Assembly (NCBI GenBank): GCA_964573345.1 | Contig: CAZNJP010000002.1 | Span: 9,916 to 41,915 of the forward strand | Reading direction: 5' to 3' | DNA from: an uncultured Syntrophobacter sp. | GTDB taxonomy: Bacteria > Desulfobacterota > Desulfofervidia > Desulfofervidales > DG-60 | DNA length: 32,000 nucleotides | In this document: positions 5,940-32,000 of the stretch, piece after piece | Position numbering within the stretch: the first letter of the stretch is position 1 | Layout: the number at the start of each line of letters is the position of its first letter | Program-made: the position numbers and the translations under genes | The notes under the pieces: model-generated | Seen by the model: the letters and a program-made list of their open reading frames with translations, nothing else | What the model was told of the DNA's origin: nothing | The model's database searches: none

Positions 5940-6011
5940 AAAACACAGGTCAGTGGATCAGTGTGTCAGTTGATCAGTTAACTGACTAACTGATCTGAGG
6001 AGTAAGAAGTT

Positions 6012-7070: not shown

Positions 7071-7139
7071 AATTGACAAGAATTTTGGATTTCAATTGAG
7101 ATTTGGGATTTGAGATTTTTAAAAGGGAGGAGGGAAATT

Positions 7140-8663: not shown

Positions 8664-8685
8664 TCCAAAGGGATAAAAAGGTTAA

Positions 8686-9188: not shown

Positions 9189-9199
9189 GATAGACAGAG

Positions 9200-9838: not shown

Positions 9839-9840
9839 AA

Positions 9841-10124: not shown

Positions 10125-10263
10125 ATAAGAATAGTTAAATAGTTGAACCAAAAATTGGAGAATCGTTGAATGGTTAAATCGTAGAATTATGGAACCGTCA
10201 AACCGAATCAACGAATTAACTAATTAACGAGTTTACTAATTTGGATAATTAGGGGGTCATAAA

Positions 10264-12445: not shown

Positions 12446-12453
12446 GTTATGAG

Positions 12454-13920: not shown

Positions 13921-14002
13921 ATGGATGTATTTTGGCAAAACAAAAAATTTTTATGATATCCTTCACCACTCTTTGATATCCCTAAAAAGTCTAAAAAAGT
14001 GC

Positions 14003-14031
14003 TTGACATTTTATTTTCATTGTGGTATTTA
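14003..14031 (+). promoter_or_regulatory. Sigma70-type promoter candidate for the 14078 operon
   Basis: TTGACA (14003-14008), 17-nt spacer, TATTTA (14026-14031) with tgg just upstream. It lies 47 nt before ATG 14078 in a 157-nt gap. Confidence 0.45.
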
Positions 14032-14058
14032 ATATTAAATTTTTAATATTAAATTTTT
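14031..14058 (+). repeat. Perfect tandem duplication of a 14-mer (aatattaaattttt x2) overlapping the -10 / 5'-UTR
   Basis: Read directly: 14031-14044 and 14045-14058 are identical. Confidence 0.8.
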
Positions 14059-14077
14059 TATATCCACAGAGGACGTT

Positions 14078-16125: not shown

Positions 16126-17592
16126 ATGAAGACACTATTTGTTATGCCCAGTGTAGGTGCCTGGGCCTCACACGGAATACACAAGGCACCCAACCAGCTT
16201 TATGCCCAGCTTGGTGCATATTTAAGGAGCAAGAACATTTGTGATGTAAAAGTTTTGGATGCCCGTGCCTTTGATATGTCTACTGAAAAGATGCTAGAGA
16301 AAGTCAAGGAACATGGTCCTGATATAGTGATATTAGGAGATATGGTTCATTCTTACGGCGGATTTGCTGTGATGTGGTATTTTAATGAAACAGCTCGCTT
16401 GATAAAGGAAGTTTGCCCAAAGATAAAGATTATTGTTGGTGGTCTTTGGTATTCTGGATATTATAAACAAACCCTTGAGCAAAATCCATGGATAGACTTT
16501 GTCTATGTAGGTGAAGCAGAGCTTACAGTAGAAGAGTTGCTCCTTGCCCTAGATAGAGGTCGCAAAGATTTAGAAAATATTCCTGGGCTTGCCTTGAGAA
16601 AAGATGGTCAAGTTGTAATTGGGCCTCATCGAGAATTGATTAAAGACTTAGACAGCCTTCCTTTGCCTGCCTATAATTTGTTTCCTATGGATAGGTATGT
16701 AGGGCATACCTATTGGAAACCATTTGTAGAAATCATTACCTCCCGTGGTTGTCCTAATGCCTGTTCTTTTTGTTATGAATGGAGCCAATTTGACCCCCGT
16801 AGCCCAAAGGACTTTATAAGCTGGAGGGCCAAGTCTGCAAAACAGGTAGTGGATGAACTGGAGTTATTAGAAAAGAAATACGGTGTGAAGGTAGTGGTTA
16901 TCCAGGATGATACCTACAATGTGAATATAAATAGATTAAAGGAAACATGTGATGAAATCTTAAAAAGACACCTTTCTATAAAATGGGTGATGTTGGGTAT
17001 AGCCCGGGATTGGGTAAGGCAAAAAGAGATTATTCCTTTAATGAAAAAGGCTGGCATGTTTATGGGTGTATTGGGAATAGAGGTAGCAAGTGATGAAGAA
17101 CTGAAAAAGATTGGCAAGGGTATAACAATTTCTCAGGTCAAAGAAACTATTGATATTTTGAGGGAAAATGACGTTGCTACTGTAGGTACCCTTCTGGTGG
17201 GATTTGAGGATGACAATGAGGCAATAATTAAAAATAGGTGTGAATTTGCTAATAAAATTGACCCAGATATTATCTGGATAGGCTTTGTTACTCCCCCGCC
17301 TGGTTCACCTATCTGGAGGAGTGCCGTTAGAAATGGTCGGGTTGATCCCAACCATATAGACCTAAAACTTTGGGACTTCCAGCACCCAGTTATGCCTACA
17401 AAAAATTTATCAATAGAAAATATAGGGCGTCTAGCTGCATGGGGAATGAAGAAGTTTTATAGCAATCCTAAAAGGATTCAACGCATCATGAATAGCAGTT
17501 ATGACTCACTTGCAAAGCTGTGTTTTAAGGACCAATTGGATAATTTCATGCGTTTTGAAAAAGCTGCAGTTAAAGGAGAAATTTTGGTTTAG
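16126..17592 (+). CDS. B12-binding-domain radical SAM protein, paralog 1
   Basis: Rossmann-like N-terminal domain (DIVILGD...IIVGG) followed by the SRGCPNACSFC CX3CX2C radical SAM motif. The size and layout are those of class B (cobalamin-dependent) radical SAM enzymes. Confidence 0.8.
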   Translation: MKTLFVMPSVGAWASHGIHKAPNQLYAQLGAYLRSKNICDVKVLDARAFDMSTEKMLEKVKEHGPDIVILGDMVHSYGGFAVMWYFNETARLIKEVCPKIKIIVGGLWYSGYYKQTLEQNPWIDFVYVGEAELTVEELLLALDRGRKDLENIPGLALRKDGQVVIGPHRELIKDLDSLPLPAYNLFPMDRYVGHTYWKPFVEIITSRGCPNACSFCYEWSQFDPRSPKDFISWRAKSAKQVVDELELLEKKYGVKVVVIQDDTYNVNINRLKETCDEILKRHLSIKWVMLGIARDWVRQKEIIPLMKKAGMFMGVLGIEVASDEELKKIGKGITISQVKETIDILRENDVATVGTLLVGFEDDNEAIIKNRCEFANKIDPDIIWIGFVTPPPGSPIWRSAVRNGRVDPNHIDLKLWDFQHPVMPTKNLSIENIGRLAAWGMKKFYSNPKRIQRIMNSSYDSLAKLCFKDQLDNFMRFEKAAVKGEILV

Positions 17593-17601
17593 GAGGAAGC
17601 A

Positions 17602-19467
17602 GTGCTCCCACAGAAGATTGCCTATTTAAACTTAGACACCACGGATGTTGAAATTAAAGAAATCCCCAAAAAAATAACCAAAAAATTTCTAGGTGGACGC
17701 GGGATAAATATGTATTTGCTTTATAATCATGTCAAACCTGAAACAGACCCCTTGTCTTCAGAAAATCCACTCATTATCGGACCAGGGCTTTTAACAGGAT
17801 TAAAGGGCATAAGTGCTAGTAGATGCAATATTTCTGGAAAATCTCCTGAAACAGGGCTTTTGGGGGATTCAAATATAGGTGGTTATTTTGGGGCATTCAT
17901 GAAAAGGACAGGCATTGACTATTTATTTATTACTGGTGCCTCAAAAAGGCCCGTTTATATCTATTTAGACGATGAGGGAATCAGTATAGAAGATGCCAAG
18001 GATTTATGGGGAAAATGTACTACAGAAACTAATACTATCTTAAAAAAACGCTATGGCCCATCAAGTCAGTCTATTTCTATTGGAATAGCAGGGGAGAATT
18101 TAGTACGCTTTGCCTGCATTATTAACAGGAAGAAGAACGCTGCTGGCAGGACTGGCATGGGTTGCCTTATGGGGGCCAAAAAGATAAAGGCCATTGTAGC
18201 AAATGGTAAAAAGGTCTTAAAGCCAAAAGATGAACCCAGATTTAATGAATTAATAAAAGACCTTCATCAAAAATTAGATAAAGAACCTTTAGTTAAAGTA
18301 CTCAGCGAATTTGGTTCTGTCCATCTTTTTAAGCTTATTAATGAGCAGATTGGTATGGGAAGGGTCTACAATGGACTTTCTATGACATTTCCAGAAAACA
18401 AAGATATTTCACCTGATATATTGAAAGAAAAATACTATACAGGAAAGGCAGGTTGCTTTTCCTGCCCTGTTGCCTGCCAGCATAGATACAAAGTTAATGA
18501 GATAAAAAGTGAAGGGCCAGAATATACCATTCTTGCTAGTTTTGGTCCTGTTGTAGGAATAAAAAGATTAGAAACAGTTCTTTATATAAACGACCTAATA
18601 AATAGCTATGGCCTGGATGCTAGTTCCACATCAAACCTTATTGCCTGGGCCATCGAACTATTTAAGAAAGGTCTAATAGATGAAGAGATAACCAATGGAC
18701 TGAAACTCGATTGGGGAGATGAAGAAGCAATTATAGAGTTGATTCACCAAATTGCCCATAGGAAAAGCTTTGGTGACATTTTGGCTAATGGGGCAAAAGA
18801 GGCAGTAAGGCAATTGGGTGAAAAAACAAGCAAATATATTATTTGGACAAAGTATCTACCCCAATCAGACCCAGTGGATTTAAGGTACCTTCCAGCTTAT
18901 GCCTTAGGTAATTCAGTGGCTTCAAGGGGTTCTGACCATTTAAGAAGTCGACCTACCTGGGAGGCCTATGGCCTTTCTGAGGAACAGTTAAAGGCCATTT
19001 ATGGTGGACATGTTTCTCCAAATCCCTGTAGCTATGAAGGAAAAGGAAGAGTTATCTGGTGGTGGGAAACTTATCTTTCCCTTTTTGATGCCTTGGGCCT
19101 TTGTAAGCTTATTGCCTTCCATTGTCGGCCTGGCTTGCTCAGTTTTGAATTTTTCTCAGAGTTGATTCGCTATGCCACTGATCTTGATCTAACACCTCAA
19201 GAAATCTTTGAGGTAGGGGAAAGAATCGTAAACCTAGAGAGGATGTTTATTGTAAAGAAGGAAATAAAAAGGCAGGATGACTTTCCACCTCAAAGGTACT
19301 TTGAACCACTAGTTTACCAGGAAGGCCTAACCCCTGAGAAAAAAGATTTAAAGCTGGATAAGGCAGGCTTTCATCAAATGCTTGATGAATACTATCAACT
19401 TCGTGGATGGGATAAAGAGGGTAGGCCTTTAGATGAAACAAAAGTGCGTTTGGGTTTAAGCCAATGA
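17602..19467 (+). CDS. Aldehyde:ferredoxin oxidoreductase family (tungsto/molybdopterin) enzyme
   Basis: GTG start after AGGAGG. AOR N-terminal domain (KIAYLNLDT...FLGGRG). 4Fe-4S ligands GCFSCPVACQH plus DALGLCKL. Full AOR length (621 aa). Confidence 0.9.
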   Translation: MLPQKIAYLNLDTTDVEIKEIPKKITKKFLGGRGINMYLLYNHVKPETDPLSSENPLIIGPGLLTGLKGISASRCNISGKSPETGLLGDSNIGGYFGAFMKRTGIDYLFITGASKRPVYIYLDDEGISIEDAKDLWGKCTTETNTILKKRYGPSSQSISIGIAGENLVRFACIINRKKNAAGRTGMGCLMGAKKIKAIVANGKKVLKPKDEPRFNELIKDLHQKLDKEPLVKVLSEFGSVHLFKLINEQIGMGRVYNGLSMTFPENKDISPDILKEKYYTGKAGCFSCPVACQHRYKVNEIKSEGPEYTILASFGPVVGIKRLETVLYINDLINSYGLDASSTSNLIAWAIELFKKGLIDEEITNGLKLDWGDEEAIIELIHQIAHRKSFGDILANGAKEAVRQLGEKTSKYIIWTKYLPQSDPVDLRYLPAYALGNSVASRGSDHLRSRPTWEAYGLSEEQLKAIYGGHVSPNPCSYEGKGRVIWWWETYLSLFDALGLCKLIAFHCRPGLLSFEFFSELIRYATDLDLTPQEIFEVGERIVNLERMFIVKKEIKRQDDFPPQRYFEPLVYQEGLTPEKKDLKLDKAGFHQMLDEYYQLRGWDKEGRPLDETKVRLGLSQ

Positions 19468-20537
19468 AGGTAGCAATAATTGGGGCAGGGGCAATAGGTA
19501 GTTTAGTAGCTGGTTATCTTAGCAAAGAAGGTATGGATGTCACTTTAGTTGGTAAAAGGCGGGATGTTTTAGCTATCAAGGAAAATGGCCTTATCATAGA
19601 AGGAGTAAGAGGGAGAATAGTTATTCCAGTTAATGTTACGAATAAATTAGGAAATGCGGATTTTATCATCTTGGCCGTTAAGACACAAGACATTGTTTCG
19701 GCCTTAAACGAGAATATCCAGGTCTTAAAAGATGCCCCTATCCTTACGGTGCAGAATGGGGTTAGGGCCGAAGAGATTCTTTTGAAGTTTGTTCCCAAGG
19801 AAAGGATTATTGGCAGCATTATCATGTTTGGAGCAACATACCTTGAACCAGGAAGAATTCTACACAATTTTGAAGGGGATTGGATAATTGGAAAAGTATT
19901 TGTTCAGAATGATGAAAAGGTTGAAACAATAGTAAATCTTTTAAACAAGGCATTTCCTGTCCACACAACAGAAGAAGTAAGGGAAATGAAATGGCTAAAG
20001 CTCTTTTTAAACCTAAATAATTGCCTTCCTGCCTTAGTAGGGAAAAGTATGCAAGAGACATTTTCTGATTTGGAGACCTGTAAGTTAAGTATCCGCCTCT
20101 TGTATGAGGCATTGATGGTGGTTGATAAGGCAGAAATTAAATTAAAATCCCTACCAGATTTTCCTGTAGAAAGGGTTCGGGCATTGACAGAGATGTCGCT
20201 AGAAGAAGCAAGCAAGATATTTTCAAAAATAATGACCAACTTGAGTGAGACGCCTCTTTATGGCTCTATCCTTCAAAGTATAAAGAGAAAAAGACCATCA
20301 GAAATTGACTATTTTAACGGAGAGATAGTCTCTTTAGGAAAAAAGCTAGGGTTGTCTGCACCTCTAAATAAAAAGGTAGTTGAGATGGTGCACGAAGTGG
20401 AGAGGAAAGGTGAGTTTTTTAGGCCAAAAGATATTTTAAATAAATTTAACTGTTTACCACAGAGAACGCAGAGACCACAAAGACGTCCCTCTGCGAGCTC
20501 TGTGAGCTCTGTGGTGAACGATCACAAACAAATTTAA
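19464..20537 (+). CDS. 2-dehydropantoate 2-reductase (PanE/ApbA) family oxidoreductase with repeat-derived C-terminal tail
   Basis: MKVAIIGAGAIGSLVAGYL dinucleotide fold, ILAVKTQD, SILQSIKRKRPSEIDYFNGEIV family motif. ATGA overlap with the AOR stop. The last ~25 codons (LPQRTQRPQRRPSASSVSSVVNDHKQI) run through the palindromic repeat at 20454-20518. Confidence 0.8.
   Translation: MKVAIIGAGAIGSLVAGYLSKEGMDVTLVGKRRDVLAIKENGLIIEGVRGRIVIPVNVTNKLGNADFIILAVKTQDIVSALNENIQVLKDAPILTVQNGVRAEEILLKFVPKERIIGSIIMFGATYLEPGRILHNFEGDWIIGKVFVQNDEKVETIVNLLNKAFPVHTTEEVREMKWLKLFLNLNNCLPALVGKSMQETFSDLETCKLSIRLLYEALMVVDKAEIKLKSLPDFPVERVRALTEMSLEEASKIFSKIMTNLSETPLYGSILQSIKRKRPSEIDYFNGEIVSLGKKLGLSAPLNKKVVEMVHEVERKGEFFRPKDILNKFNCLPQRTQRPQRRPSASSVSSVVNDHKQI
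20454..20518. repeat. Palindromic pair of family A (ttcaccRcagag) units
   Basis: The forward arm is ttaccacagagaacgcagaga. The reverse complement of tctgcgagctctgtgagctctgtggtgaa is ttcaccacagagctcacagagctcgcaga. The two arms can form a long imperfect hairpin. Confidence 0.65.
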
Positions 20538-20548
20538 GGGGGTTAAAG

Positions 20549-21124
20549 ATGGAATTAAAGTTTCCTAAGCTTCTGGTCAGTATAAGCAAGATTAGAGAAA
20601 AATGCTATCAGGGATATAAAGAAGGGGATAAATTTATCTTTCAAGACTTTACTAAAACCCCTCAAGGCTTTTGTCAAGGGGCCGCCACCGTGCTTTTCCC
20701 CTGTCTTTATGCCTTAACCTTTGGGGCAGAGTTTCCCTTTGAGGAAAATCCCCGTTCTATCCATACCAGTTGTCCTGATGGAGGGAGGGTAGAGTTTTTT
20801 ACCCAAGTGCTGACTGAAGCAGGGGAAATAGAAATCGGAAAAAAACAGGAACAAATAGGGCCAAAACCAAAGAAGATGATTCTCAGTGTAGAGGAAGTAA
20901 GAGGAAGGTGTTTTTATGGCTATAAGGCAGGAGATACCTTTGAAATAACCGGACTTAGCACTCCAAAGAATTTTTGCGGTGGTGCCTATAATGCCCTGTT
21001 CCCTGTGTTTTTTGCCTTAAATTTTGGGGCAAAATATCCATTTACTGAAGATGGAGGAACAATTTCTCGTGTGACCTGCCCAGATGGGGCAAACATTAGG
21101 TTTAAAGTAAGGAGAATGGAATAA
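20549..21124 (+). CDS. Tandem-domain TIGR04076-like protein (unknown function)
   Basis: Two ~90-aa halves share the pattern C..GYK.GD.F......P..FC.GA...LFP...AL.FGA..PF........CPDG..(V/I).F, which I recognise as the TIGR04076 small Cys-rich family. Confidence 0.55.
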   Translation: MELKFPKLLVSISKIREKCYQGYKEGDKFIFQDFTKTPQGFCQGAATVLFPCLYALTFGAEFPFEENPRSIHTSCPDGGRVEFFTQVLTEAGEIEIGKKQEQIGPKPKKMILSVEEVRGRCFYGYKAGDTFEITGLSTPKNFCGGAYNALFPVFFALNFGAKYPFTEDGGTISRVTCPDGANIRFKVRRME

Positions 21125-21198: not shown

Positions 21199-21267
21199 GT
21201 AAACCACCCCACCCTTCCGGGTAGGGCATTGTTAAAGGTCCCCCACACCAATTTTTGGTGTGGGGGT
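21199..21267 (-). repeat. 69-bp inverted repeat, right copy
   Basis: gtaaaccaccccacccttccgggtagggcattgttaaaggtcccccacaccaatttttggtgtgggggt. This is the reverse complement of 16026-16094 except for one base (gggtaggg versus gggtgggg). Confidence 0.9.
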
Positions 21268-21282
21268 GAACGCTTGCAAAAA

Positions 21283-22545
21283 ATGAGGAAAAGGGTGGTA
21301 GTTACAGGTATAGGGGTGCTTTCCCCAAATGGTATTGGAAAAGAGGCATTTTGGGAAGGGATGATTTCAGGCAAATCAGGGGTAAGGCGTGTAACGGATT
21401 TTGATGTTTCTCAATTTCATTCCCAGATTGCTGCAGAAGTAAAAGATTTTGACCCATTTAGCTTTGGCTTGACGGCTGAGGAAGTAGAAAGGATGGATCG
21501 TTATGTCCAGTTTGCCGTTGTAGGAACAGAGATGGCAATAGAGGATGCAAAAATTCTTTTAGATAAAGAAGAAAAGGAGAGAGTGGGTGTTTGTTTGGCC
21601 AATGCCATCTGTGGCACAAGGTATATGGAAGAGGAATTTGTTAGGGTAACAAATGGTGGAAAAGAACCTATAGACCCGAAAAAAGTAAGACCATACCTTT
21701 ATGATGCCTCTATGTTTAATACCCCTGCGAGTGAAATATCGGCACGCTATCGATCAAAGGGCATTTGCACCACAGTTTCTACTGGTTGCACCGCAGGCAC
21801 AGATGCTGTGGGCTTTGCTTATGAAGTCATTCAAAATGGAGAGGCAGATATTATGATTACTGGTGCCTCTGAAGCGCCCCTTTGTGCCATTACCTTTGCT
21901 GCATTTGATGTCTTAAAGGTAATATCGGCCAGAAATGATGAGCCAGAAAGGGCATCAAGGCCCTTTGATAAAGAAAGGGATGGTTTTGTGCTCTCTGAGG
22001 GTTGCGGCATCTTAATCTTAGAAGAATTGGATCATGCCTTAAGGCGAGGGGCTCATATCTATTGTGAAATCACAGGTTTTGGCACCTGCTGTAATGCCTA
22101 TCATATGACAGATTTACCATCAGATGGTGATAGTATGGTTGTTTCTATAAATTTTGCCTTAAAAGATGCAGAATTGTCTCCTGAGGACATAGGTTATGTC
22201 AATGCCCATGGTAGTTCTACTAAACAAAATGATATATTTGAAACCAATGCCTATAAAACAGTCTTTGGCAAAAAAGCCTATGAGACCCCTATAAGTTCTC
22301 TTAAATCCATGATTGGCCATCCTTTGGCTGCGGCCAACAGCATAGAACTTATTGCCAGTGCCCTTATTTTTGAAAGGGACATTTTACCACCCACCATAAA
22401 TCAAGAGGCGCCTGACCCTGTATGCGATTTGGACTACATTGCTAATAAGGCCCGAGAAAAACGCATCAATCACATACTTAAAACCAGCAGTGGCTTTGCT
22501 GGTGTCCATTCCTCAATGGTATTGAGCAGACGGAATTCAAAATGA
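21283..22545 (+). CDS. Beta-ketoacyl synthase, KS-alpha type (active Cys-His-His)
   Basis: ORF 21229..22545. Its first 18 codons lie inside the inverted repeat, so the start is placed at ATG 21283 (MRKRVVVTGIG). Active-site VSTGCTAG (Cys codon tgc 21787-21789), AYHMT and VNAHGSST histidines, SLKSMIGH. Confidence 0.9.
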   Translation: MRKRVVVTGIGVLSPNGIGKEAFWEGMISGKSGVRRVTDFDVSQFHSQIAAEVKDFDPFSFGLTAEEVERMDRYVQFAVVGTEMAIEDAKILLDKEEKERVGVCLANAICGTRYMEEEFVRVTNGGKEPIDPKKVRPYLYDASMFNTPASEISARYRSKGICTTVSTGCTAGTDAVGFAYEVIQNGEADIMITGASEAPLCAITFAAFDVLKVISARNDEPERASRPFDKERDGFVLSEGCGILILEELDHALRRGAHIYCEITGFGTCCNAYHMTDLPSDGDSMVVSINFALKDAELSPEDIGYVNAHGSSTKQNDIFETNAYKTVFGKKAYETPISSLKSMIGHPLAAANSIELIASALIFERDILPPTINQEAPDPVCDLDYIANKAREKRINHILKTSSGFAGVHSSMVLSRRNSK

Positions 22546-23759
22546 AAAATATAGCTATTACAGGGATAGGTATAGTAGCTCCTCCTGGAATTGGAAAAGA
22601 GGTATTTTGGCAAAATATTAAAGAAGGAAAAACCTTTATTTCTCCAATTACAAGGTTTGATGCCTCAAACTATCCTTTACAAGTAGCAGGCCAAATCGAA
22701 AATCTAAACACAGACCATCTTTCTCGCCGCCTCTTAAAAAAGATAGACAATTTTTCGGTTATGGCCTTGACTGCTACAGAAGAGGCCTTAAAAGACGCAT
22801 CTTTGGATTTAACCAAAGAAGACCCTTATAAGATTGGAATCTTTACAGGAAATGCCTTAGGGGGATGGCTCTATGCCGAGACTGAATTGCGTGACCTTTA
22901 TGTAGAAGGCAGAGAAGGGGTAAGCCCATATCTGGCCAGTGCCTGGTTTCCAGCGGCCCCTCAAGGTCAAATCTCTATCTATTATGGCATAAAGGGATAC
23001 AGTAAGACAATGGTGGCAGACAGGGCAAGTGCTCTAATAGCCATTGCCTATGCCGCTCAGGTAGTTGGAAATAGAAAATTAGACATTGCCTTAGCTGGAG
23101 GTACTGAGGCACCGGTTACCCCTTATGCATTACTTTGCTGCAGCACAGAGGGCTCACTTTCAAAAGGTCCTTATCGCCCCTTTGATAAAGAAAGGGATGG
23201 ATTTGTTATCGGTGAAGGAGCAGGGATCGTAATCTTAGAAAATGTGGAAAATGCCTTAAAAAGGGGAGCGACAATTTATGGGTTGATTGCAGGTTATGGG
23301 AATTCTTGTGATGGTACTGATCGCATAATGCCAGATCCTAACGGCAAAGGGCTGTCTCTGGCGATAAACATTGCTTTAGATATGGCTGGTTATAAGCCCA
23401 GAGATATTGATTATATCTGTGCCGATGGGACAGCAACAAAATTAGGAGATATTAGCGAAACAAGAGCAATAAAAGAGGTATTCGATAATTATGCCAAAAA
23501 GATACCTGTCAGTGCACCAAAATCCATGTTTGGGCATTTACTGGGGGCATCTGGTGCAGTAGACCTCATCATCACCCTTTTGGCGATGCAAGATGGGGTT
23601 GCCCCTCCTACTATAAATTATCAAACAGAAGACCCTGAATGTAACTTAGATTATGTGCCTAATGAAAGCCGGTCTAAAGAAATTAAAAGGGCCCTTATTA
23701 CATCTCGTGGTCGAGGGGGCATAAACGCAGTTTTGGCTATAGAAAGGCCCGCCTGCTAG
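22542..23759 (+). CDS. KS-beta / chain-length-factor-like partner lacking the catalytic triad
   Basis: ATGA overlap with KS-alpha. Same fold (RPFDKERDGFVIGEGAG, APKSMFGH). However, Arg161 (agg 23022-23024) aligns with the KS Cys / CLF Gln, and ICADGTAT replaces VNAHGSST. Confidence 0.85.
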   Translation: MKNIAITGIGIVAPPGIGKEVFWQNIKEGKTFISPITRFDASNYPLQVAGQIENLNTDHLSRRLLKKIDNFSVMALTATEEALKDASLDLTKEDPYKIGIFTGNALGGWLYAETELRDLYVEGREGVSPYLASAWFPAAPQGQISIYYGIKGYSKTMVADRASALIAIAYAAQVVGNRKLDIALAGGTEAPVTPYALLCCSTEGSLSKGPYRPFDKERDGFVIGEGAGIVILENVENALKRGATIYGLIAGYGNSCDGTDRIMPDPNGKGLSLAINIALDMAGYKPRDIDYICADGTATKLGDISETRAIKEVFDNYAKKIPVSAPKSMFGHLLGASGAVDLIITLLAMQDGVAPPTINYQTEDPECNLDYVPNESRSKEIKRALITSRGRGGINAVLAIERPAC

Positions 23760-23781
23760 CTTGCACAGCTAAGCGGGCGGG
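23748..23781 (+). promoter_or_regulatory. GC-rich hairpin (family B) spanning the KS-beta stop, immediately before the ACP ribosome-binding site
   Basis: cccgcctgctagct-tgcac-agctaagcgggcggg. It shares cccgcctgcta with 2544-2554. No T-run follows, so it is not called a terminator. Confidence 0.5.
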
Positions 23782-23797
23782 TTTGGGAGGTGAAATT

Positions 23798-24049
23798 ATG
23801 GAAGGTATTGAAGGAAAAATAAAAAACTTATTTGTCAAACTCTTTGATGTTAGGCCAGATGAGGTAACAAAAGAGGCAAACCTTAATGATGACCTAGGAA
23901 TGGACTCAACAGAGATGGTAGAATTGACAGTAGCTTTAGAAAAGGAGTTCAAGGTGAAGATTAAAGATGGTGAGATTACAAATGAACACTCTGTAGGTGA
24001 CGTCCTAAGGATTGTGGAGAATAAGCTTAACCCTGTTGATTTGTCCTAA
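23798..24049 (+). CDS. Acyl carrier protein
   Basis: ORF 23783..24049. Start placed at ATG 23798 after GGAGGTG. The phosphopantetheine site DLGMDSTEMVEL is in an ~83-aa helical protein. Confidence 0.85.
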   Translation: MEGIEGKIKNLFVKLFDVRPDEVTKEANLNDDLGMDSTEMVELTVALEKEFKVKIKDGEITNEHSVGDVLRIVENKLNPVDLS

Positions 24050-24106: not shown

Positions 24107-24913
24107 ATGAAGATTATAGACCTGAGCCTTCCTATTGATGATAGCATATTTGAACCTATTCCAGTAAAAATAAAGCGATGGAAACACAAAAGAGGCGGAA
24201 ATCGCTTTGGTTTGAGGTGGGCCGCCTCTAAAGGTATGAGAGGTATTTTAAATTATATTACAGGGAAAGAGAGGATTACGCATCGCTCCTTTAAAGATGG
24301 GGTCTTTTTGGCCTTGGAGCAAGTTACTGCAACTGTGCACACAGGCACCCATCTTGATGCCCCATATCATTATGGACCTCTTTCTGAGGGAAAAGAGGCA
24401 AAGAAGATAGAAGAGATTCCTTTAGAATGGTGTTATGGTAATGGCGTTGTCTTAGACCTTTCTCACAAAAGGCCAGGAGAATTTATCACCAAAGAAGACA
24501 TAAAAAAGGCGCTTGATAAAATAAAATATGAGATAAAACCCTTTGACATTGTGCTTATTCACACTGGGGCAGATAGATTTTGGGGAGGAAAAGAATATTT
24601 TTCTCATTTTCCAGGGATGAGTAGGGAGGCAGTGGCCTATATTTTGGAATTTAAAGTAAAGGTCATTGGAATTGATGCCTTTAGTTTTGACCGCCCATTT
24701 TACACTATGTTAAGAGATTTTTTAAAGACAAAAGACAATCGTTATCTCTGGCCGGCCCATTTTTATGGAAGAGAAAAGGAGTATTGCCATATAGAAAGAC
24801 TGGCTAATCTGGATAAGATTCCAGAACCTTATGGCTTTAAAGTGGCCTGTTTCCCTATAAAGATAAAAGGGGCAGGCGCGGGCTGGATAAGGGCTGTAGC
24901 CATCATTGAATAA
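24107..24913 (+). CDS. Cyclase-family protein (PF04199, kynurenine-formamidase-like / putative polyketide cyclase)
   Basis: The metal-binding signature HTGTHLDAPYH (H.GTH.D.P.H) is diagnostic of this family. Confidence 0.8.
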   Translation: MKIIDLSLPIDDSIFEPIPVKIKRWKHKRGGNRFGLRWAASKGMRGILNYITGKERITHRSFKDGVFLALEQVTATVHTGTHLDAPYHYGPLSEGKEAKKIEEIPLEWCYGNGVVLDLSHKRPGEFITKEDIKKALDKIKYEIKPFDIVLIHTGADRFWGGKEYFSHFPGMSREAVAYILEFKVKVIGIDAFSFDRPFYTMLRDFLKTKDNRYLWPAHFYGREKEYCHIERLANLDKIPEPYGFKVACFPIKIKGAGAGWIRAVAIIE

Positions 24914-24931: not shown

Positions 24932-25378
24932 ATGGGACACACAGTAAATTCTATTATGATTGAGGCACCTTATGATTTGGTGTTTGATATTTCAAATGAT
25001 ATTGAAAGATGGACAGAGCTATTTGGTGGGGAATACAAAGAGGCAAAGATATTAAAAAAAGAAGAAAACAAAATTACCTTTCAGTTGACCGATGCCAATG
25101 GTAATTCCTGGCAATCCTTTCGTCTTTTATTTAAGGATTACTACTTTACTTATGCCCAAAAACTTGAGCCAGCATTTCCTTTTAAGTACATGAAGATTAT
25201 CTGGCTCTATACCCCTATGTCTGACAGGATACTCATGACCTGGATTCAGGATTTTACGATGGCAGATGGAGCAAAATTTAATGATGAGCAAGTTGAAGGT
25301 TTTATTAATAAGCATTCAAGGGATAATCTAAAGATATTTAAAGAGGTAATAGAGAAAGAGGCGAAGAATAAGAAGTAA
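24932..25378 (+). CDS. SRPBCC-fold polyketide cyclase/aromatase-like protein
   Basis: 148 aa. The N-terminus SIMIEAPYDLVFDISNDIERWTELFGG follows the Polyketide_cyc2 / ARO-CYC pattern (S..V.AP...V.....D.ERWPELFP). Confidence 0.7.
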   Translation: MGHTVNSIMIEAPYDLVFDISNDIERWTELFGGEYKEAKILKKEENKITFQLTDANGNSWQSFRLLFKDYYFTYAQKLEPAFPFKYMKIIWLYTPMSDRILMTWIQDFTMADGAKFNDEQVEGFINKHSRDNLKIFKEVIEKEAKNKK

Positions 25379-25395
25379 GGAGAGTGGGGGTAAAA

Positions 25396-26169
25396 ATGGA
25401 TAATTTAAAAGGTAAAATGGCTATAATTACAGGGGCTAGTAGAGGGATTGGCAAGGCAATTGCTGAAATACTGGCAAAAGAGGGGATGAATCTTGTGATT
25501 GCGGCCCGTGGTAAAGAAATGCTTGAAGAAACTGCAAAAGAACTATCTGAAAAATATAATGTAAAAGCATTGTCTGTGTCCTGCGATGTTTCAAAGCAAA
25601 AGGATTTAGAAAATCTGGTAAATGTCTCTGTTAAAGAGTTTAAAAAGATAGATGCATTAATCAACAGTGCCGGCATAAGCAGCCAATATCCTTTTCATGA
25701 GCAACCATTAGAAGACATTCCAAGGCTTATGTATACAAATTACTTTGGTGCAGTGATGCTTATACGTTTAATCATAAATCACTTTATAGAAAATAAAGGT
25801 GGGGCCATCATAAATGTTGTCTCTGGCTCTACCTTAGTAGACCCCCCACCAAGAAACTTTATTATCTATACCTCGCTTAAGCAGGCATTAAGGGCCTTTG
25901 GAAAGGGGCTTTTTTGGGAATTGCGGGATTTTGGCATAAAGGTGACTTCAATCATGCCTGGGGTAACAGATACAGCCTTAACCCAGGGGTTAAAGGAGGT
26001 TTCTGTAGACAAGTCCCGTCTTATAAATACCAAGGCTATAGAGGATGCAGTGAAGTTTGCGCTCTCTGTGCCGGCAAATGTCTGTCCTTTAGAGATTTCG
26101 GTTATCAATCAGCGCACGCCTTGGATAAGGCCAGTCATTCCATACAAGCAGGAGCACCCCGTTAAATAA
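25396..26169 (+). CDS. Short-chain dehydrogenase/reductase (ketoreductase)
   Basis: ORF 25384..26169 (GTG). ATG 25396 is preferred. TGASRGIG cofactor motif, NVVSGS and YTSLK (YxxxK) catalytic residues. Confidence 0.85.
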   Translation: MDNLKGKMAIITGASRGIGKAIAEILAKEGMNLVIAARGKEMLEETAKELSEKYNVKALSVSCDVSKQKDLENLVNVSVKEFKKIDALINSAGISSQYPFHEQPLEDIPRLMYTNYFGAVMLIRLIINHFIENKGGAIINVVSGSTLVDPPPRNFIIYTSLKQALRAFGKGLFWELRDFGIKVTSIMPGVTDTALTQGLKEVSVDKSRLINTKAIEDAVKFALSVPANVCPLEISVINQRTPWIRPVIPYKQEHPVK

Positions 26170-26195: not shown

Positions 26196-27104
26196 ATGAT
26201 TTTTGATGCCCATACACACTGGCTTCCAAAAGAGATTATTGAAAATGCCCAGTTTTTTTCCAATGTTTGGGGTGATATTGAAAGGCAATTGGTCATAATG
26301 GATGAATTTAAGATTGACAAAGCACTTTTGGTCTATCCTACAACTGATGCTTATAAAAAGATGGGTCTAAAGGAAGTAGCAAGGGTTTATAATAATTCCA
26401 TTGCTGAAATAGTAAATAAATACCCTGAAAGACTTGTTGGGGCAGCCATCTTACCCATAGATGACCCAAAGGAGATAATAAAAGAATTTGACCGTGCGAT
26501 TGAAGTATTGGGATTTAAGGCCATTTCTCTTGCCACAAGTTTTGATGATATGTATTTAGATGATGAAAAATTTTATCCACTTTATGAAAAGGCAGAGGCA
26601 TTAAGCATTCCTATTTTTGTCCATCCACAAATCATAAACCCGATAGGTTATGAGCGGGTAAAAGACCCTTTGCTTACCCCGGTGATTGAATTTGTGTTTG
26701 ATACCACGATGTGCATTGGGAAATTGATGGTAGCAGGCATATTTAAAAAATTTCCAGATTTAAAATTTGTCTTTGCCCACTTAGGGGGGGTGATACCATT
26801 TATTAAAGAAAGATTTGACAGCATATACAAAATGCTTAGAGAAAGAAATATAGTCAAAGACCTCTTTGCCCTCCCTAGCGAATATTTGAAACAGATATAT
26901 GTAGATACAAGTGGGGCTGTATCCCATTCTGCCCTTATGGGCACTATTGAGATGGTAGGGATAGAGCATATTTTATGGGGTAGCGATTACCCTGGAAATC
27001 CCAATATATCAGCATCGATCAAGGCCATAGAGGAATTAAAGATACCTGAAGAAGAAAAGAAAAAAATATTGGGTGAAAATATGGTTAGATCGTTGATTCG
27101 TTAA
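26196..27104 (+). CDS. Amidohydrolase_2 (PF04909) family metal-dependent hydrolase/decarboxylase
   Basis: FDAHTHW (HxH), VHPQ, FAHLGG and WGSDYP metal ligands in TIM-barrel order. The family includes non-oxidative aromatic-acid decarboxylases. Confidence 0.8.
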   Translation: MIFDAHTHWLPKEIIENAQFFSNVWGDIERQLVIMDEFKIDKALLVYPTTDAYKKMGLKEVARVYNNSIAEIVNKYPERLVGAAILPIDDPKEIIKEFDRAIEVLGFKAISLATSFDDMYLDDEKFYPLYEKAEALSIPIFVHPQIINPIGYERVKDPLLTPVIEFVFDTTMCIGKLMVAGIFKKFPDLKFVFAHLGGVIPFIKERFDSIYKMLRERNIVKDLFALPSEYLKQIYVDTSGAVSHSALMGTIEMVGIEHILWGSDYPGNPNISASIKAIEELKIPEEEKKKILGENMVRSLIR

Positions 27105-27208: not shown

Positions 27209-28117
27209 ATGAAAGGGTTGATATTTAATGTCCAACATTACTCTATTCACGATGGTCCAGGTATAAGGACCACTGTATTCTTGAAAGGATGTCCTCTAAG
27301 GTGTATATGGTGTTCCAATCCAGAAGGACAAAAAGCGATTCCCGAGATTCTTTATAACAAGAATATGTGTAATAAGTGTTATAAGTGTATAGATGCTTGC
27401 CCATATAGGGCCATTAGTATTACTCAGGAAGGATTTATCGCTATTAATGGAGGTATCTGTAAGAGATGTAAGAAGCATGTATGTGTAAGCGCATGTGATG
27501 AAAACGCTCTTAAATCGGTGGGGCAATTTATTACCATAGGAGAATTAATGCAAGAAGTCCAAAAAGATAGCTTATTTTACCGTAATTCCAATGGTGGGGT
27601 CACTTTATCTGGGGGAGAACCAACAAATCAAGCTGAATTTACTTTGGAGTTTTTTAAAAAGTGCAAAGAAAAGGGGATTCACACTGCATTAGATACATGT
27701 GGACATACACCATGGGAGTCTTTAAAAAGGGTCTTAGAATATACTGATTTGGTTCTATATGACATCAAACATATGGATCCTGAAAAACATAAAAAAATTA
27801 CGGGAGTATCTAATGATATTATCCTAAAAAATGCGGAGGCAATATTTAATAAAAGCAAAGTGCGTACAATTATCAGAATTCCTATAATACCCAGGTACAA
27901 TGATTCAAAACAGAATATCAATGCCATTGCAAAATTTGTAAAAGAAATAGGAGGAAAGGAAGTCAATCTTCTTCCCTATCATAAGTTGGGTATAGGCAAA
28001 TATGAAAGATTGGGTATGAATTACTCTGTTAAAAATTTTCAGCCACCTTCTAAACAGACCCTTGAACAAATGAAAACAATCTTTGAGGCTCAGGGCCTTA
28101 GGTGTCTGATAATTTAG
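27209..28117 (+). CDS. Glycyl-radical enzyme activating enzyme (radical SAM)
   Basis: IFNVQHYSIHDGPGIRTTVFLKGCPLRCIWCSNPE (CX3CX2C). It also has a ferredoxin-like insert, CNKCYKCIDACP and CKRCKKHVCVSAC, typical of activases of non-PFL glycyl radical enzymes. Confidence 0.9.
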   Translation: MKGLIFNVQHYSIHDGPGIRTTVFLKGCPLRCIWCSNPEGQKAIPEILYNKNMCNKCYKCIDACPYRAISITQEGFIAINGGICKRCKKHVCVSACDENALKSVGQFITIGELMQEVQKDSLFYRNSNGGVTLSGGEPTNQAEFTLEFFKKCKEKGIHTALDTCGHTPWESLKRVLEYTDLVLYDIKHMDPEKHKKITGVSNDIILKNAEAIFNKSKVRTIIRIPIIPRYNDSKQNINAIAKFVKEIGGKEVNLLPYHKLGIGKYERLGMNYSVKNFQPPSKQTLEQMKTIFEAQGLRCLII

Positions 28118-28125
28118 GAAGTAAC

Positions 28126-30510
28126 ATGAAACACATAGTTTCAATAGAAGCTATTTTGACAGAAAGGGTGAAGAGGCTCAGAGAAGAAATCAGAAAACAA
28201 CCTGTTTATGGAGATTGGGAAAGGGATAATCTCCTAACCGAATACTGGAGGCAATCTGATGGCGAGTACATTTATTTAAGACGGGCTAAGGCGTTTCATA
28301 AAATATTGACAGAGAAAGATATAAAGATTTTTGATGGTGAACTTATTGTCGGAGCACCCACAAAATATCTTTCAGGTGGCGCATTTTACCCAGAATATAG
28401 CTGCGACTGGATAGAAAAAGAATGGGGTAAATTTACCTCAAGAGAAGGGAGTAAATTTATCCCTGTTGGTGAAAAGGAAGTAATTTTAGAAGATATCCAA
28501 TTCTGGAAAGGCAAATCTTTATTAGACAAGATATTACCTTTATTTTATGAAAAATGGAATTTATTACAAAATATGTTTGATTCTAGAATAACTGCTGGTG
28601 ATAGACCTTGTGCCCATGGGCGTCAAATAATAGATTTTGCTAAAGTGCTGAATAAAGGATTGAGAGGAATTATTGAGGAAATAAAGCAGACAAAAGAAAT
28701 CGCACCTCTGAATACCACAGAAGATTTACATAAACATTATTTTTGGGATGCCTGTATTATTGCCTGTGAGGCAGTAATTAATTTTGCTAAAAGGCATGCC
28801 GAACTTGCTAGAAAAATGGCCAAAAGTGAAATGGATAAATCAAGAAAAGTAGAACTCAAAAAGATTGTAAAGATTTGTGAATGGGTACCTGAAAATCCTG
28901 CAAGGACATTTCATGAAGCCTTGCAATCTCTATGGTTTACCCATTTGTGCGTAGAGATAGAAAACAACTCCTTTGGCTATTCTCTAGGGAGGATGGATCA
29001 ATATCTATATCCTTTTTACAAAGAGGACATAGAGGAAAGAAGAATTACAAGGGAGCAAACGGCTGAATTACTTGCATGTCTATGGCTTAAATTTAATACC
29101 ATTCATTGGATAACAAAGTGGTCAATAGCAGCGATTATCCAAACTAGTAATTTCCAAAATATTACCATAAGTGGAAGAGATAGTGAGGGAAGTGATGCTT
29201 CTAATGAGCTATCTCGCCTTATTGTAGAGGTAGATACAGCCCTAAAGTTGCCACAACCCACTCTTTCACTTAGGTATCATGATTGCATAGACGAAGATTT
29301 CCTATTTAAATGTGGTGAGGATATTGCTACAGGCGGTGGGAAACCTGCTATTTTTTGTGAGAATTATGCATATTCTGTTTTGCCTTTGTATGGGGTTCCA
29401 TTAGAAGATGTAATTGAGTTTGCACCCATTGGATGTGTAGAGATGGGAATTCCTGGGAAAACTGCTTTGTTTGCTGGCTGCTTTGTAAGCCTTCCTCATT
29501 GCCTTGAGTTAGTCTTTACAAACGGTATTCATAGAAAGATGGGTAAAAAAATAGGCATTGAAACAGGGAATGTTGAGGGTTTTTCTAGCTTTGATGAGTT
29601 TATGGATGCCTTCCTACACCAATTTGAGTTTGTTCATCACATCATAGTAAGCTATAGTAAGATTAATCAGGTAGCCATGCGGCCATATTTTGTTCCCTGT
29701 CCATTTAACTCAAGTCTGATTTCTGATTGCATTACCAAAGGTAGAGATATCCATAGTGGTGGAGCTAGGTATAACCAATTTTTCGCCTCTTATCCAGTTG
29801 GAATGGTAACCACGGCAAATTCACTCTATGTTCTTAAGAGATTGGTATATGAAGATAAAAAAATTGGCATGAAAGAACTTAAAGATGCATTGGCCGCGAA
29901 TTTTGAAGGAAAATACTGTAAGATAAAAAAGTTATGTCTAGAGGTTCCTAAGTATGGAAATGATATTGATGAAGTAGATAATATGCTTAGGGATCTATTT
30001 AAAGAAATCAGCAAGATTGTGATGCAAGAAAAGAATGCCTTTGACCATCCAATGGCCCCTGCTTACCTTGGTGTTACAGCACATTACTTTCATGGTGTAG
30101 GTTGTGGGGCCACACCTGATGGGCGCTTGGCCTATACACCTTTTGCCGATGGTTCTCTATCTGCATACCCTGGCACAGATAAAAAAAGTCCAACAGCGCT
30201 TATAAAATCAGCTACCAAGGCAAACACTACCCCAGCTGTAGCCACGCTTTTTAATATAAAATTGAATCCTTCTGTCCTAAAATCAGCAGAAGGTATGAGA
30301 AACTTTTGGAGTCTTATTAAGACCTATTCCGATCTTGGTGGATATCATGTTCAGTTTAATGTAATTGATAAAAAGACATTGCTTGAAGCAAAAAGACATC
30401 CTGAGAGATATAGAGATTTACTAATAAGGGTTGCAGGATTTAGTGCCTATTTTGTGGATTTGGCACCTGCTGTTCAGGATGAGATTATTGCCAGAACAGA
30501 ACACAAGTAA
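28126..30510 (+). CDS. Glycyl radical enzyme, Cys-x-Glu (PFL2 / dehydratase-lyase) class, substrate unknown
   Basis: ORF 28102..30510. Start placed at ATG 28126 (after the activase stop, AGGAAG upstream). Glycyl radical motif LIRVAGFSAYF (Gly codon 30436-30438). Thiyl loop PIGCVEMG (Cys 29434-29436, Glu 29440-29442). Confidence 0.9.
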   Translation: MKHIVSIEAILTERVKRLREEIRKQPVYGDWERDNLLTEYWRQSDGEYIYLRRAKAFHKILTEKDIKIFDGELIVGAPTKYLSGGAFYPEYSCDWIEKEWGKFTSREGSKFIPVGEKEVILEDIQFWKGKSLLDKILPLFYEKWNLLQNMFDSRITAGDRPCAHGRQIIDFAKVLNKGLRGIIEEIKQTKEIAPLNTTEDLHKHYFWDACIIACEAVINFAKRHAELARKMAKSEMDKSRKVELKKIVKICEWVPENPARTFHEALQSLWFTHLCVEIENNSFGYSLGRMDQYLYPFYKEDIEERRITREQTAELLACLWLKFNTIHWITKWSIAAIIQTSNFQNITISGRDSEGSDASNELSRLIVEVDTALKLPQPTLSLRYHDCIDEDFLFKCGEDIATGGGKPAIFCENYAYSVLPLYGVPLEDVIEFAPIGCVEMGIPGKTALFAGCFVSLPHCLELVFTNGIHRKMGKKIGIETGNVEGFSSFDEFMDAFLHQFEFVHHIIVSYSKINQVAMRPYFVPCPFNSSLISDCITKGRDIHSGGARYNQFFASYPVGMVTTANSLYVLKRLVYEDKKIGMKELKDALAANFEGKYCKIKKLCLEVPKYGNDIDEVDNMLRDLFKEISKIVMQEKNAFDHPMAPAYLGVTAHYFHGVGCGATPDGRLAYTPFADGSLSAYPGTDKKSPTALIKSATKANTTPAVATLFNIKLNPSVLKSAEGMRNFWSLIKTYSDLGGYHVQFNVIDKKTLLEAKRHPERYRDLLIRVAGFSAYFVDLAPAVQDEIIARTEHK

Positions 30511-30560: not shown

Positions 30561-32000
30561 ATGATAGTTTTATTTTTACAACCTCCACTTGGGAATTGGG
30601 TTAGCTGGGGAAAACATGTAGCCATTAATGTAAATCATGCCCAATTGGCTGCAAATTTACGTGAATGGCATCCAGAGATAGAGATAAGGATTTTAGAGTG
30701 TAAAGCATTAGATATAGATGAAAGAAGAATGCTTGATGCTATTAGAGAAATAGAACCTGACTTAGTTTATATGGGAGATGCCTTGCAGACTACGGGAGTT
30801 GCCGCCATTGCTCCTCGCTACAAAAGGGCAGCCAGTTTAATTGAACAGCAAAATAAAAATATAAAGATATGTGTAGGTGGATTCTATTATGGGGCAAATG
30901 CCCCTCAAATATTAAAGAAAACAAAAGAATTTGACTTTATCATTTATGGAGAGACGGAGGTAACACTGCCTGAATTAGCTAAAGAGCTAAGTAAAAAGGA
31001 GCCTGACATTCCTTCAATAAAAGGGCTTGCATATTGGGATAATGATGAATTAAAAGTTACTCCTTATCGCCCTTTATTTGAAAATTTAGATGACTTACCA
31101 CTCCCTGCATATGATTTATTTCCAATGGGAAAATACAAATATATGGAGACATATCATTCCAGAGGTTGCCCAAATGGATGTAAATTTTGTGTAGGTTGGA
31201 CAAATTACGATCCTCGTGGGAATAAAGATTGGATGCATTATCGCATAAGATCAGCTAAAAGGGTAGCTGATGAATTAGAGCTTTTAGAAAAAAGATTTGG
31301 TGTAAAATATGTGGTAATGATGGATGAGGACTTTAATGTATATCGCTCAAGGATTGAAGGATTAATAGAGGAGTTATTTAAGCGAGGACTTAAAGTGAAA
31401 TATTTCTTTATGGGGAGGGCCCCTTATTTTTTGAGAGATAAAGATTTACTCATAGACTTAAGAAAATCAGGCTTTATTCAATGTTTATTTGGCCTTGAGG
31501 TAGTAGATGAAAAAACATTAAAGAAGATTGGAAAAGGGATTACTGTTGATGAAGTAGAAGAAACAGTAGCAAGATGCAGGGAAAACAATATTGGTACCAT
31601 AATATCCTGGATGGTAGGTTTTCCTGATGACAATGAAGAGACCATCAAAAAACGTTTTGAAAGATTAGATAAGATTGACCCAGATATCTCTTCTCTTCAA
31701 ATATTAACACCACTTCCAGGTATTCCTATGTATCCTGAGATTGAGCCTTACATTGAAGAAGAAGATTTAAGTAAGTGGGATTTTTTCCATCCTGTTATAA
31801 GAACAAAATATTTAACTAGAGAAGAATTAGGAAGGCTGGCTGCTTGGTGTAATTGCGAATTCTTTAATAATCCAGAAAGGATGCATAGAATATTATTCAA
31901 TAAAAATTTAGATCCGTTCTGTAGGCTTTCTGCTAAAATTTATATAAAGACAGTAAATGCTTATACTAGAGCAGCTACTAAAGGGGAGGTATTTGTATAA
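30561..32000 (+). CDS. B12-binding-domain radical SAM protein, paralog 2
   Basis: Colinear with 16126..17592 (LPLPAYDLFPM, SRGCPNGCKFC, LKKIGKGIT, DPDI, C-terminal KGEVFV). The stop codon is the last three bases of the window. Confidence 0.8.
   Translation: MIVLFLQPPLGNWVSWGKHVAINVNHAQLAANLREWHPEIEIRILECKALDIDERRMLDAIREIEPDLVYMGDALQTTGVAAIAPRYKRAASLIEQQNKNIKICVGGFYYGANAPQILKKTKEFDFIIYGETEVTLPELAKELSKKEPDIPSIKGLAYWDNDELKVTPYRPLFENLDDLPLPAYDLFPMGKYKYMETYHSRGCPNGCKFCVGWTNYDPRGNKDWMHYRIRSAKRVADELELLEKRFGVKYVVMMDEDFNVYRSRIEGLIEELFKRGLKVKYFFMGRAPYFLRDKDLLIDLRKSGFIQCLFGLEVVDEKTLKKIGKGITVDEVEETVARCRENNIGTIISWMVGFPDDNEETIKKRFERLDKIDPDISSLQILTPLPGIPMYPEIEPYIEEEDLSKWDFFHPVIRTKYLTREELGRLAAWCNCEFFNNPERMHRILFNKNLDPFCRLSAKIYIKTVNAYTRAATKGEVFV

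Follow-up and report, generated by a model that had tools for sequence, protein, structure and literature searches.

What does a glycyl radical enzyme (GRE) do at the end of an operon that encodes an aromatic polyketide synthase? The question is raised by a stretch of 32,000 nucleotides from an uncultured Syntrophobacter sp. (contig CAZNJP010000002.1, positions 9,916 to 41,915), called the window below, which is a run of about 28 genes, all on the plus strand, with a GC content of 34-42%. Close to its 3' end, the GRE gene (28102 or 28126 to 30510) stands between the gene of a GRE-activating enzyme (27209-28117) and that of a second B12-binding radical S-adenosylmethionine (SAM) protein, rSAM2 (30561-32000). 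A type II polyketide synthase (PKS) is encoded upstream. The GRE is probably a radical tailoring enzyme that acts on the operon's own aromatic polyketide. This reading is favored because the synteny is conserved, the three-gene group is portable, a catabolic signature is absent and the pocket of the enzyme is aromatic.

The protein matches the PFL-like domain PF02901 with an E-value of 2.5e-181 (605 bits) and the Gly_radical domain PF01228 with an E-value of 2e-27 (96 bits), and therefore the assignment is no chance match. Translation could start at the GTG codon at 28102, giving 802 residues, or at the ATG codon at 28126, giving 794. The latter is the start called in the public assemblies; homologs of 803-807 residues favor the former. 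Residue numbers given here are those of the 794-residue form. The Cys loop, G436-C437-V438-E439 (29431-29442), aligns with C433/E435 of glycerol dehydratase (GDH) and with the corresponding loops of propanediol dehydratase (PD) and CutC, and its Cys would carry the thiyl radical while its Glu would act as the general acid/base. C437 does not vary among 64 relatives. The glycine loop, RVAG771FSAYF (30427-30453), is the predicted site of the stable glycyl radical and is aligned with the RVAGY motif of GDH, PD and the enzyme of PDB entry 8id1. An earlier sequence-only reading of this DNA had pointed out both motifs, with the single Cys of GCVE, and both are found where it placed them. The AlphaFold2 model of the protein (pLDDT 94.3, pTM 0.93) superimposes onto all solved GREs with TM-scores of 0.89-0.95. 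Thus the protein combines a PFL-like barrel with a glycyl radical domain, carries the Gly of the RVxG motif and the loop Cys, and has a radical SAM activase encoded nearby, as is characteristic of the GRE superfamily. It is not a pyruvate formate-lyase (PFL) proper, which would have a Cys-Cys pair in place of the single Cys and which is described by the model TIGR01255 (90 bits against a cut-off of 994). A pseudogene or a chance open reading frame (ORF) was also rejected, the catalytic residues being intact and conserved.

The activating enzyme is a radical SAM protein of 302 residues with the Pfam domains Radical_SAM, Fer4_12 and Fer4. Its gene ends 8 nucleotides before the ATG start of the GRE, or overlaps the GTG start. 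It contains the CX3CX2C motif CPLRCIWC (27290-27313), the GGE SAM motif and two auxiliary ferredoxin-like motifs with four Cys residues each, CNKCYKCIDAC (27368-27400) and CKRCKKHVCVSAC (27458-27496). With 371 bits, it passes the cut-off of 174 of the NCBIfam GRE-activase model TIGR02494. The NCBIfam models for the activases of indoleacetate decarboxylase (IAD), HypD, HpsH, 4-hydroxyphenylacetate decarboxylase (HPAD) and CutC give 315-376 bits; for several of the substrate-specific models the score is 80-90% of the cut-off, and none is passed. Both extra clusters noticed in the sequence-only reading are present, but they are not distinctive, because these activase models, too, score at 315-376 bits. 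Orthologs of the activase lie directly 5' of the GRE in the loci L002, L099, L100, L014, L015 and L020. As the family signatures are intact, the activase and the GRE are predicted to be a functional pair.

To judge from its sequence, the GRE belongs to no characterized clade. Structural superposition gives 26-36% identity to every solved GRE. A phmmer search of the Protein Data Bank finds many GREs at a similar distance, with E-values between 1e-150 and 1e-116. These include 8id1 (N-methyl-hydroxyproline dehydratase), PD, GDH, CutC, HypD, IseG, AAD, YbiW/PflD, HpsG and IslA. All of the NCBIfam equivalog cut-offs are missed: HpsG (567 bits against 1000), HypD (565 against 1100), IAD (545 against 1100), CutC (506 against 1050), HpfG (460 against 1000) and HPAD (444 against 1150). 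The subfamily model TIGR01774 is missed as well, with 625 bits against a cut-off of 678. About 12 clusters among 5.8 billion clustered proteins are at least 57% identical to the GRE, none of them with an informative name. A library of 1.84 billion representatives of 50%-identity clusters contains 2,148 GRE clusters at E-values of 1e-30 or better, the nearest representative being 44% identical. A scan of genome contigs with the GRE alone returned only relatives at 35-38% identity, from Ignavibacteria and Bacteroidota. A scan of metagenome contigs with an alignment of the clade returned 80 loci, of which only L019 and L020 are close and the others are generic GREs. The term 'orphan', used in the sequence-only reading, is therefore apt, and no characterized clade was found in which the protein falls with its substrate-binding residues conserved. 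Membership of the diol dehydratases, CutC or HypD was rejected, since neither the diagnostic residues nor the cut-offs of these families are matched. A fumarate-adding enzyme was rejected on account of 28% identity and the absence of accessory subunits. The limonene GRE known from the literature is a fumarate-adding enzyme and is not relevant here.

The active site separates the protein from the diol dehydratases. Cys, Glu and Gly of GDH are retained, but in pairwise alignments GDH His164 is replaced by Arg166, His281 by Phe283, Ser282 by Gly284, Tyr339 by Phe343, Asp447 by Ala450 and Tyr640 by Leu648. The replacement of the diol-dehydratase residues holds across the GRE clade. Arg166 is part of the motif H164-G165-R166-Q167 (28615-28626) and occupies a substrate-contacting position, opposite GDH His164, PD His166, IslA Gln193, HypD His160 (approximate) and HPAD residue 223; Phe343 is opposite HPAD residue 405, the HPAD numbers being alignment coordinates. 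The 12 relatives at 57% identity or more all have G165-R166. Among 117 relatives, G165-R166 (in most of them), an aromatic residue followed by G284-Y285, and F/Y343-Q344 are kept down to about 44% identity, whereas Gly-His occupies positions 165-166 in the dehydratase-like relatives of 39% identity or less.

The active-site residues published for HPAD include both Arg223 and Phe405 (PMC4979209). For IAD, an essential Arg226 that stacks on the indole ring and a pocket lined by Phe401 and Leu730 have been described (PMC13232127, PMC9248008). A search with a 39-residue fragment for a direct alignment to HPAD or IAD gave no match. The spacing of the residues is similar: Arg and Phe are 175 residues apart in IAD and GDH and 177 in the present enzyme, and the distance from Gly to Leu is 123 in all three. 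This spacing, in place of a direct alignment, suggests that Arg166, Phe343 and Leu648 are the equivalents of IAD Arg226, Phe401 and Leu730. Ala450/Gly451 are at the estimated position of IAD His514, which recognizes the distal NH group. At the positions of Phe283, Gly284, Tyr285 and Phe343, AAD has Tyr, Gly, Met and Phe, respectively. The pocket, predicted to be formed by Phe283, Tyr285, Phe343, Phe449, Tyr647 and Leu648 in addition to Arg166, looks hydrophobic and aromatic, more like that of the arylacetate decarboxylases than that of the diol dehydratases. The structural modeling and active-site comparison that had been proposed as a check of the sequence-only reading gave a GRE fold and, by sequence alignment, a replacement of the GDH residues, with Arg166 and Phe343 at the alignment positions of Arg223 and Phe405 of HPAD.

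The genes 5' of the GRE encode a genuine type II PKS, because a ketosynthase (KS) with a Cys-His-His triad, a chain-length factor (CLF) without it, a discrete acyl carrier protein (ACP) and an aromatase/cyclase (ARO/CYC) are all present. The minimal PKS, identified by Pfam and by inspection of active sites, spans positions 21229-24049. The triad of KS-alpha is intact. The CLF (22542-23759), whose gene overlaps the KS gene by 4 nucleotides, has Arg, not Gln, in place of the active-site Cys, and Asp in place of both His residues; the Arg is Arg or Lys in orthologs (Lys in one). The ACP carries a DS motif. Next is a PF04199 'putative cyclase' (24107-24913), which matches this family with an E-value of 6e-38 and has PDB matches of the kynurenine formamidase/isatin hydrolase fold. 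The ARO/CYC (24932-25378) is a monodomain protein of the TcmN/WhiE type with the SRPBCC fold; its E-values to TcmN ARO/CYC and to the WhiE polyketide cyclase are about 2e-25 in a phmmer search of the PDB. A short-chain dehydrogenase/reductase (SDR) or ketoreductase (25384-26169; adh_short, E=4e-49, and a KR domain) precedes an Amidohydrolase_2 protein (26196-27104; Pfam), which resembles non-oxidative aromatic-acid decarboxylases in its sequence. The best solved relative of the latter is the 5-carboxyvanillate decarboxylase LigW (E=7e-32), followed by ACMSD and gamma-resorcylate decarboxylase, and its candidate metal ligands are H6, H8, further His and the motif WGSDYP. Downstream of the GRE, rSAM2 is a BchE-like protein of 479 residues by its Pfam domains and scores 193 bits with the BchE model, under the cut-off. 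The amidohydrolase, the B12-binding radical SAM protein and the two cyclases are the neighbors that the sequence-only reading had named.

The PKS and GRE genes are parts of a block of 14 genes that begins with a first B12-binding radical SAM protein and ends with rSAM2. The intergenic distances within the block are between -4 and 104 nucleotides. Terminator-like sites are not in excess within it, and Rfam, promoter and terminator scans found nothing above background. The upstream part of the block (16126-21124) encodes the first, BchE-like B12-binding radical SAM protein, a tungsten-type aldehyde:ferredoxin oxidoreductase (AFOR), a ketopantoate-reductase-like reductase and a protein of 191 residues (20549-21124). 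The last of these has two Cys-rich TIGR04076 domains, lies directly 5' of the KS gene and is kept in L002 and L099.

The block is not confined to the window, and the statement that the GRE is embedded in a biosynthetic cluster is upheld by its synteny in two further lineages. The metagenome-assembled genome of Candidatus Desulfofervidus auxilii (L099) contains the same 14 genes, with protein identities of 72-88% gene by gene (GRE 83%, activase 73%, rSAM2 88%, KS 85% and ARO/CYC 88%), the first radical SAM gene being cut by the edge of the stretch that was examined. A Logan contig (L002), which starts inside the oxidoreductase gene, contains all of the block except the first radical SAM gene, at 80-93% identity (GRE 89%). 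The similar divergence of the proteins across the block argues for inheritance of the GRE together with the PKS and not for its recent insertion. Furthermore, the trio of activase, GRE and rSAM2 was found in five lineages. Orthologs of rSAM2 (61-89% identity) adjoin the GRE in L002, L099/L100/L019, L014 and L015. In L014 the trio is located 3' of a natural-product-type O-methyltransferase with a dimerization domain (GRE 77% identical), and in L015 it is rearranged to rSAM2-activase-GRE (GRE 72% identical). In the Candidatus Desulfofervidus contigs L099 and L019 the cluster stops right after the B12-binding radical SAM gene, and a phage-type integrase gene is nearby in L019.

More distant relatives were also seen in other arrangements. 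Three complete GRE paralogs and a truncated one, 60-66% identical to the GRE of the window, are in tandem in L003 (1-10892), interleaved with LolA-like/DUF1329 genes. In L018 there is a tandem pair of GREs, one with only 39% identity. Relatives at 53% identity or less (L006-L008, L021, L022 and L037) have heterogeneous contexts that give no clue to a substrate, namely TctC and benzoyl-CoA-reductase-like genes, NMT1 binding proteins, DUF169 and flagellar genes.

The type II PKS operon would thus end, on its 3' side, in a radical tailoring module of three genes, those of the activase, the GRE and rSAM2. The operon belongs to thermophilic sulfate reducers, strict anaerobes of the Candidatus Desulfofervidus kind. 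By analogy with what is established for the GRE family, the activase would cleave SAM and take a hydrogen atom from Gly771. The glycyl radical would then generate a thiyl radical on Cys437, which would attack the substrate with Glu439 as the acid/base. The substrate would be not a nutrient but an aromatic intermediate, made by the upstream KS, CLF and ACP, the TcmN-like aromatase and the second cyclase. The suggestion of the sequence-only reading that a hydroxylated or carboxylated cyclic polyketide is the substrate has been strengthened by the conserved operon, the hydrophobic pocket and the Arg at the decarboxylase position, although such a compound is still something that we infer. As to the reaction, a redox-neutral Kolbe-type decarboxylation, which would convert a carboxylate of the aryl-acetic-acid type into a methyl-arene, is tentatively favored, because two-electron chemistry makes such a step difficult and because the set of Arg, Phe and Cys-x-Glu matches that of HPAD and IAD. 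Nearly as likely is the second candidate, in which a ring that the adjacent SDR has reduced would undergo a radical 1,2-elimination or dehydration.

Several observations speak against this account, some of them against the decarboxylation in particular. A LigW-type decarboxylase is already encoded close by, and a second decarboxylase needs a second or different carboxylate. The equivalence to IAD Arg226 is deduced from conserved spacing only, and His536 and Glu637 of HPAD, which recognize the phenol, could not be mapped in the GRE. Overall identity is slightly higher to the dehydratases (34-36%) than to AAD (33%) or HPAD (26-27%). This last point also favors the proposal that the GRE is a 1,2-eliminase that supplies a starter unit, converting a vicinally substituted alcohol into an aldehyde, which the AFOR or the aldehyde dehydrogenase would oxidize to an acid for loading by an acyl-AMP ligase as the PKS primer. 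The Cys-x-Glu loop is the hallmark of eliminases and the best overall matches are dehydratases; the cluster encodes, besides an AFOR and an aldehyde dehydrogenase, two acyl-AMP ligases, and the gene of a third ligase lies just 3' of the window; and a GRE relative at 49% identity is also near an AFOR. The Gln of CLFs is associated with decarboxylative priming, so that a CLF without Gln fits a starter other than acetate. However, His164, Ser282 and Asp447, the residues with which diol dehydratases bind or protonate the leaving group, are all absent and the pocket is strongly aromatic and hydrophobic. Moreover, the GRE is encoded at the tailoring end, after the cyclases, and in L014 and L015 it travels with the B12-binding radical SAM protein and not with the AFOR or ligases. 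We consider supply of a starter unit unlikely.

The genomic contexts of the relatives at 57-66% identity also weigh against a biosynthetic role. They occur in arrays of two to four tandem GRE paralogs, and no PKS is visible on their contigs of 11-12 kb, which are too short to show whether one is near. Their neighbors encode LolA-like/DUF1329 proteins, an MMPL transporter, flavoproteins, an FMN reductase and a molybdenum hydroxylase of the xanthine-dehydrogenase family, and would also fit the uptake and catabolism of hydrophobic compounds. The GRE clade might then degrade or transform imported hydrophobic aromatic acids or alcohols of hydrothermal sediments, its adjacency to the PKS being due to shared regulation or chance. 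The window itself contains an MMPL transporter, two LolA-like proteins and a DUF1302 protein, and proteins of the DUF1302 and DUF1329 families take part in alkane uptake in Marinobacter (AupA/AupB). The same kind of transporter set could equally export a lipid-like product, as it does in aryl-polyene clusters. All characterized GREs of this branch serve primary, mostly catabolic, metabolism, and an account from 2021 places GREs in primary metabolism (PMC8264950). Nevertheless, the block from PKS to GRE is kept as a tight unit with uniform divergence in three lineages, the trio in L014 adjoins a natural-product-type O-methyltransferase, and the shortness of the tandem-paralog contigs leaves room for a nearby PKS. 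A catabolic role therefore seems improbable, to about the same degree as starter supply. It is still less probable that the GRE carries out some other redox-neutral radical reaction on the polyketide (a C-C bond cleavage, a rearrangement or a hydroalkylation), possibly in tandem with the B12-binding radical SAM protein. The active-site signature (G-R-Q, aromatic-G-Y and a His458 that is invariant in the clade) matches that of no characterized GRE, and no precedent was found for an obligatory pairing with a BchE-like radical SAM protein. On the other hand, the known chemistry of Cys-x-Glu GREs is elimination or decarboxylation.

If the GRE is a tailoring enzyme, as we favor, the locus bears on a wider problem. 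The tailoring of aromatic polyketides is understood almost entirely through O2-dependent enzymes, and a GRE and B12-binding radical SAM module in a strict anaerobe would reveal how aromatic polyketide scaffolds are completed in the absence of oxygen, and would broaden GRE chemistry to include large aromatic substrates. The GRE and the BchE-like protein could well be a portable anaerobic tailoring cassette, with the first GRE dedicated to natural-product biosynthesis. The cassette would replace steps that depend on oxygenases or are otherwise chemically inaccessible, for instance by radical decarboxylation of an aryl-acetate terminus. Bacteria of the Candidatus Desulfofervidus type are partners of thermophilic methane-oxidizing archaea, and Candidatus Desulfofervidus auxilii is available in enrichment culture. 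Because the host is of this type and the cluster is flanked by the MMPL, LolA-like and DUF1302 set, the product could be a redox-active aromatic compound located in the envelope. The cluster flags an uncharacterized metabolite in the bacterial partner of thermophilic methane-oxidizing consortia.

The 5' half of the window (9-16023) is occupied by co-directional genes that may belong to the same pathway, judging from their common orientation and from the recurrence of some of them (the LolA-like, MMPL, flavoprotein and FMN-reductase genes) beside relatives of the GRE. They encode an aldolase-SCP2 fusion, an aldehyde dehydrogenase, an HAE3/MMPL transporter, two LolA-like proteins, DUF1302 and DUF374 proteins, two acyl-AMP ligases, an amine-oxidase-like flavoprotein and an FMN reductase. 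The first of these (9-932) combines a class II aldolase/adducin domain and an SCP2 lipid-binding domain in one protein, and its ORF overlaps that of the aldehyde dehydrogenase by 44 nucleotides. The LolA_like/DUF1329 genes (5061-5939 and 6012-6896) are tandem paralogs, 85% identical, located after the transporter gene and before the DUF1302 gene; each has an antisense ORF of 117 residues, probably an artifact of the duplication. Together, the HAE3/MMPL, LolA-like and DUF1302 proteins make up a set for the transport of hydrophobic molecules in the envelope. A gene of the 23S rRNA intervening-sequence protein family (8823-9155), a family of four-helix bundles, separates the DUF1302 gene from the DUF374 gene. 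The two acyl-AMP ligases are paralogs with 52% identity and are separated by an ORF of 82 residues without a family match and an overlapping ORF that is DUF6036 nucleotidyltransferase-like (11758-12445); this pair may be a toxin-antitoxin-like insertion. Past the window, the source contig (L001, 14036-18646) continues the cluster with genes for another amine-oxidase-like flavoprotein, for a third acyl-AMP ligase, which shares 55-59% identity with the two in the window, a GNAT-like protein of 372 residues and an ORF of 111 residues.

The PKS cluster family itself has already been catalogued. The survey of Cummings et al. (2019) includes type II PKS clusters of Candidatus Desulfofervidus auxilii and of 'Desulfobacterium sp. 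4572_20'. It examined whether the KS/CLF pair of the former is soluble in E. coli, where three other pairs were the soluble ones (PMC6638757). The cluster of Candidatus Desulfofervidus auxilii is of the same family as that of the window, and a polyketide cyclase fragment from 'Desulfobacterium sp. 4572_20' falls into the same 90%-identity cluster as the ARO/CYC of the window. The GRE, the activase and the radical SAM proteins are not mentioned in that study: 'glycyl' and 'radical SAM' are absent from its main text, and 'glycyl' and 'formate lyase' from its supplements. Literature searches on GREs combined with polyketide or biosynthetic clusters did not uncover a GRE in a polyketide cluster or in another cluster for natural products. 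By these searches the biosynthetic context of this GRE is unprecedented. Within a superfamily that is itself well known, the enzyme represents a new functional variant.

Among the known GREs, the B12-independent enzymes GDH and PD (1r8w, 5i2a and 9rco) are the best overall matches, with 34-36% identity, TM-scores of 0.93-0.95 and a shared Cys-x-Glu loop. They differ from the present enzyme in the residues at GDH positions His164, His281/Ser282, Asp447 and Tyr640, and in the model TIGR01774, which it misses. Microcompartment genes are likewise absent here, a Pfam scan of the window having found no bacterial-microcompartment shell domains. The choline TMA-lyase CutC, the hydroxyproline dehydratases (HypD, 8id1 and 8iof) and the sulfonate lyases/dehydratases (IslA/IseG and HpsG) share the architecture of GRE eliminases and the Cys-x-Glu loop, but their identity is 29-36% and the equivalog scores are far under the cut-offs. 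At the specificity position, IslA has Gln193, HypD has His and 8id1 has Glu, compared to Arg166 here. The arylacetate decarboxylases HPAD/CsdB, IAD and AAD have in common with the GRE system of the window the fold, the Gly and Cys-x-Glu loops, an activase with two auxiliary clusters and a hydrophobic pocket. HPAD and IAD also have Arg at the position of HPAD Arg223 (IAD Arg226) and Phe at that of HPAD Phe405 (IAD Phe401), and AAD has a similar pair of an aromatic residue and Gly. Their identity is nevertheless 26-33%, and the HPAD and IAD models (444 and 545 bits) are missed by a wide margin. A small Fe-S subunit like that of HPAD has no ORF between 30510 and 30561, and the GRE is found in the context of a PKS operon and not of amino-acid fermentation.

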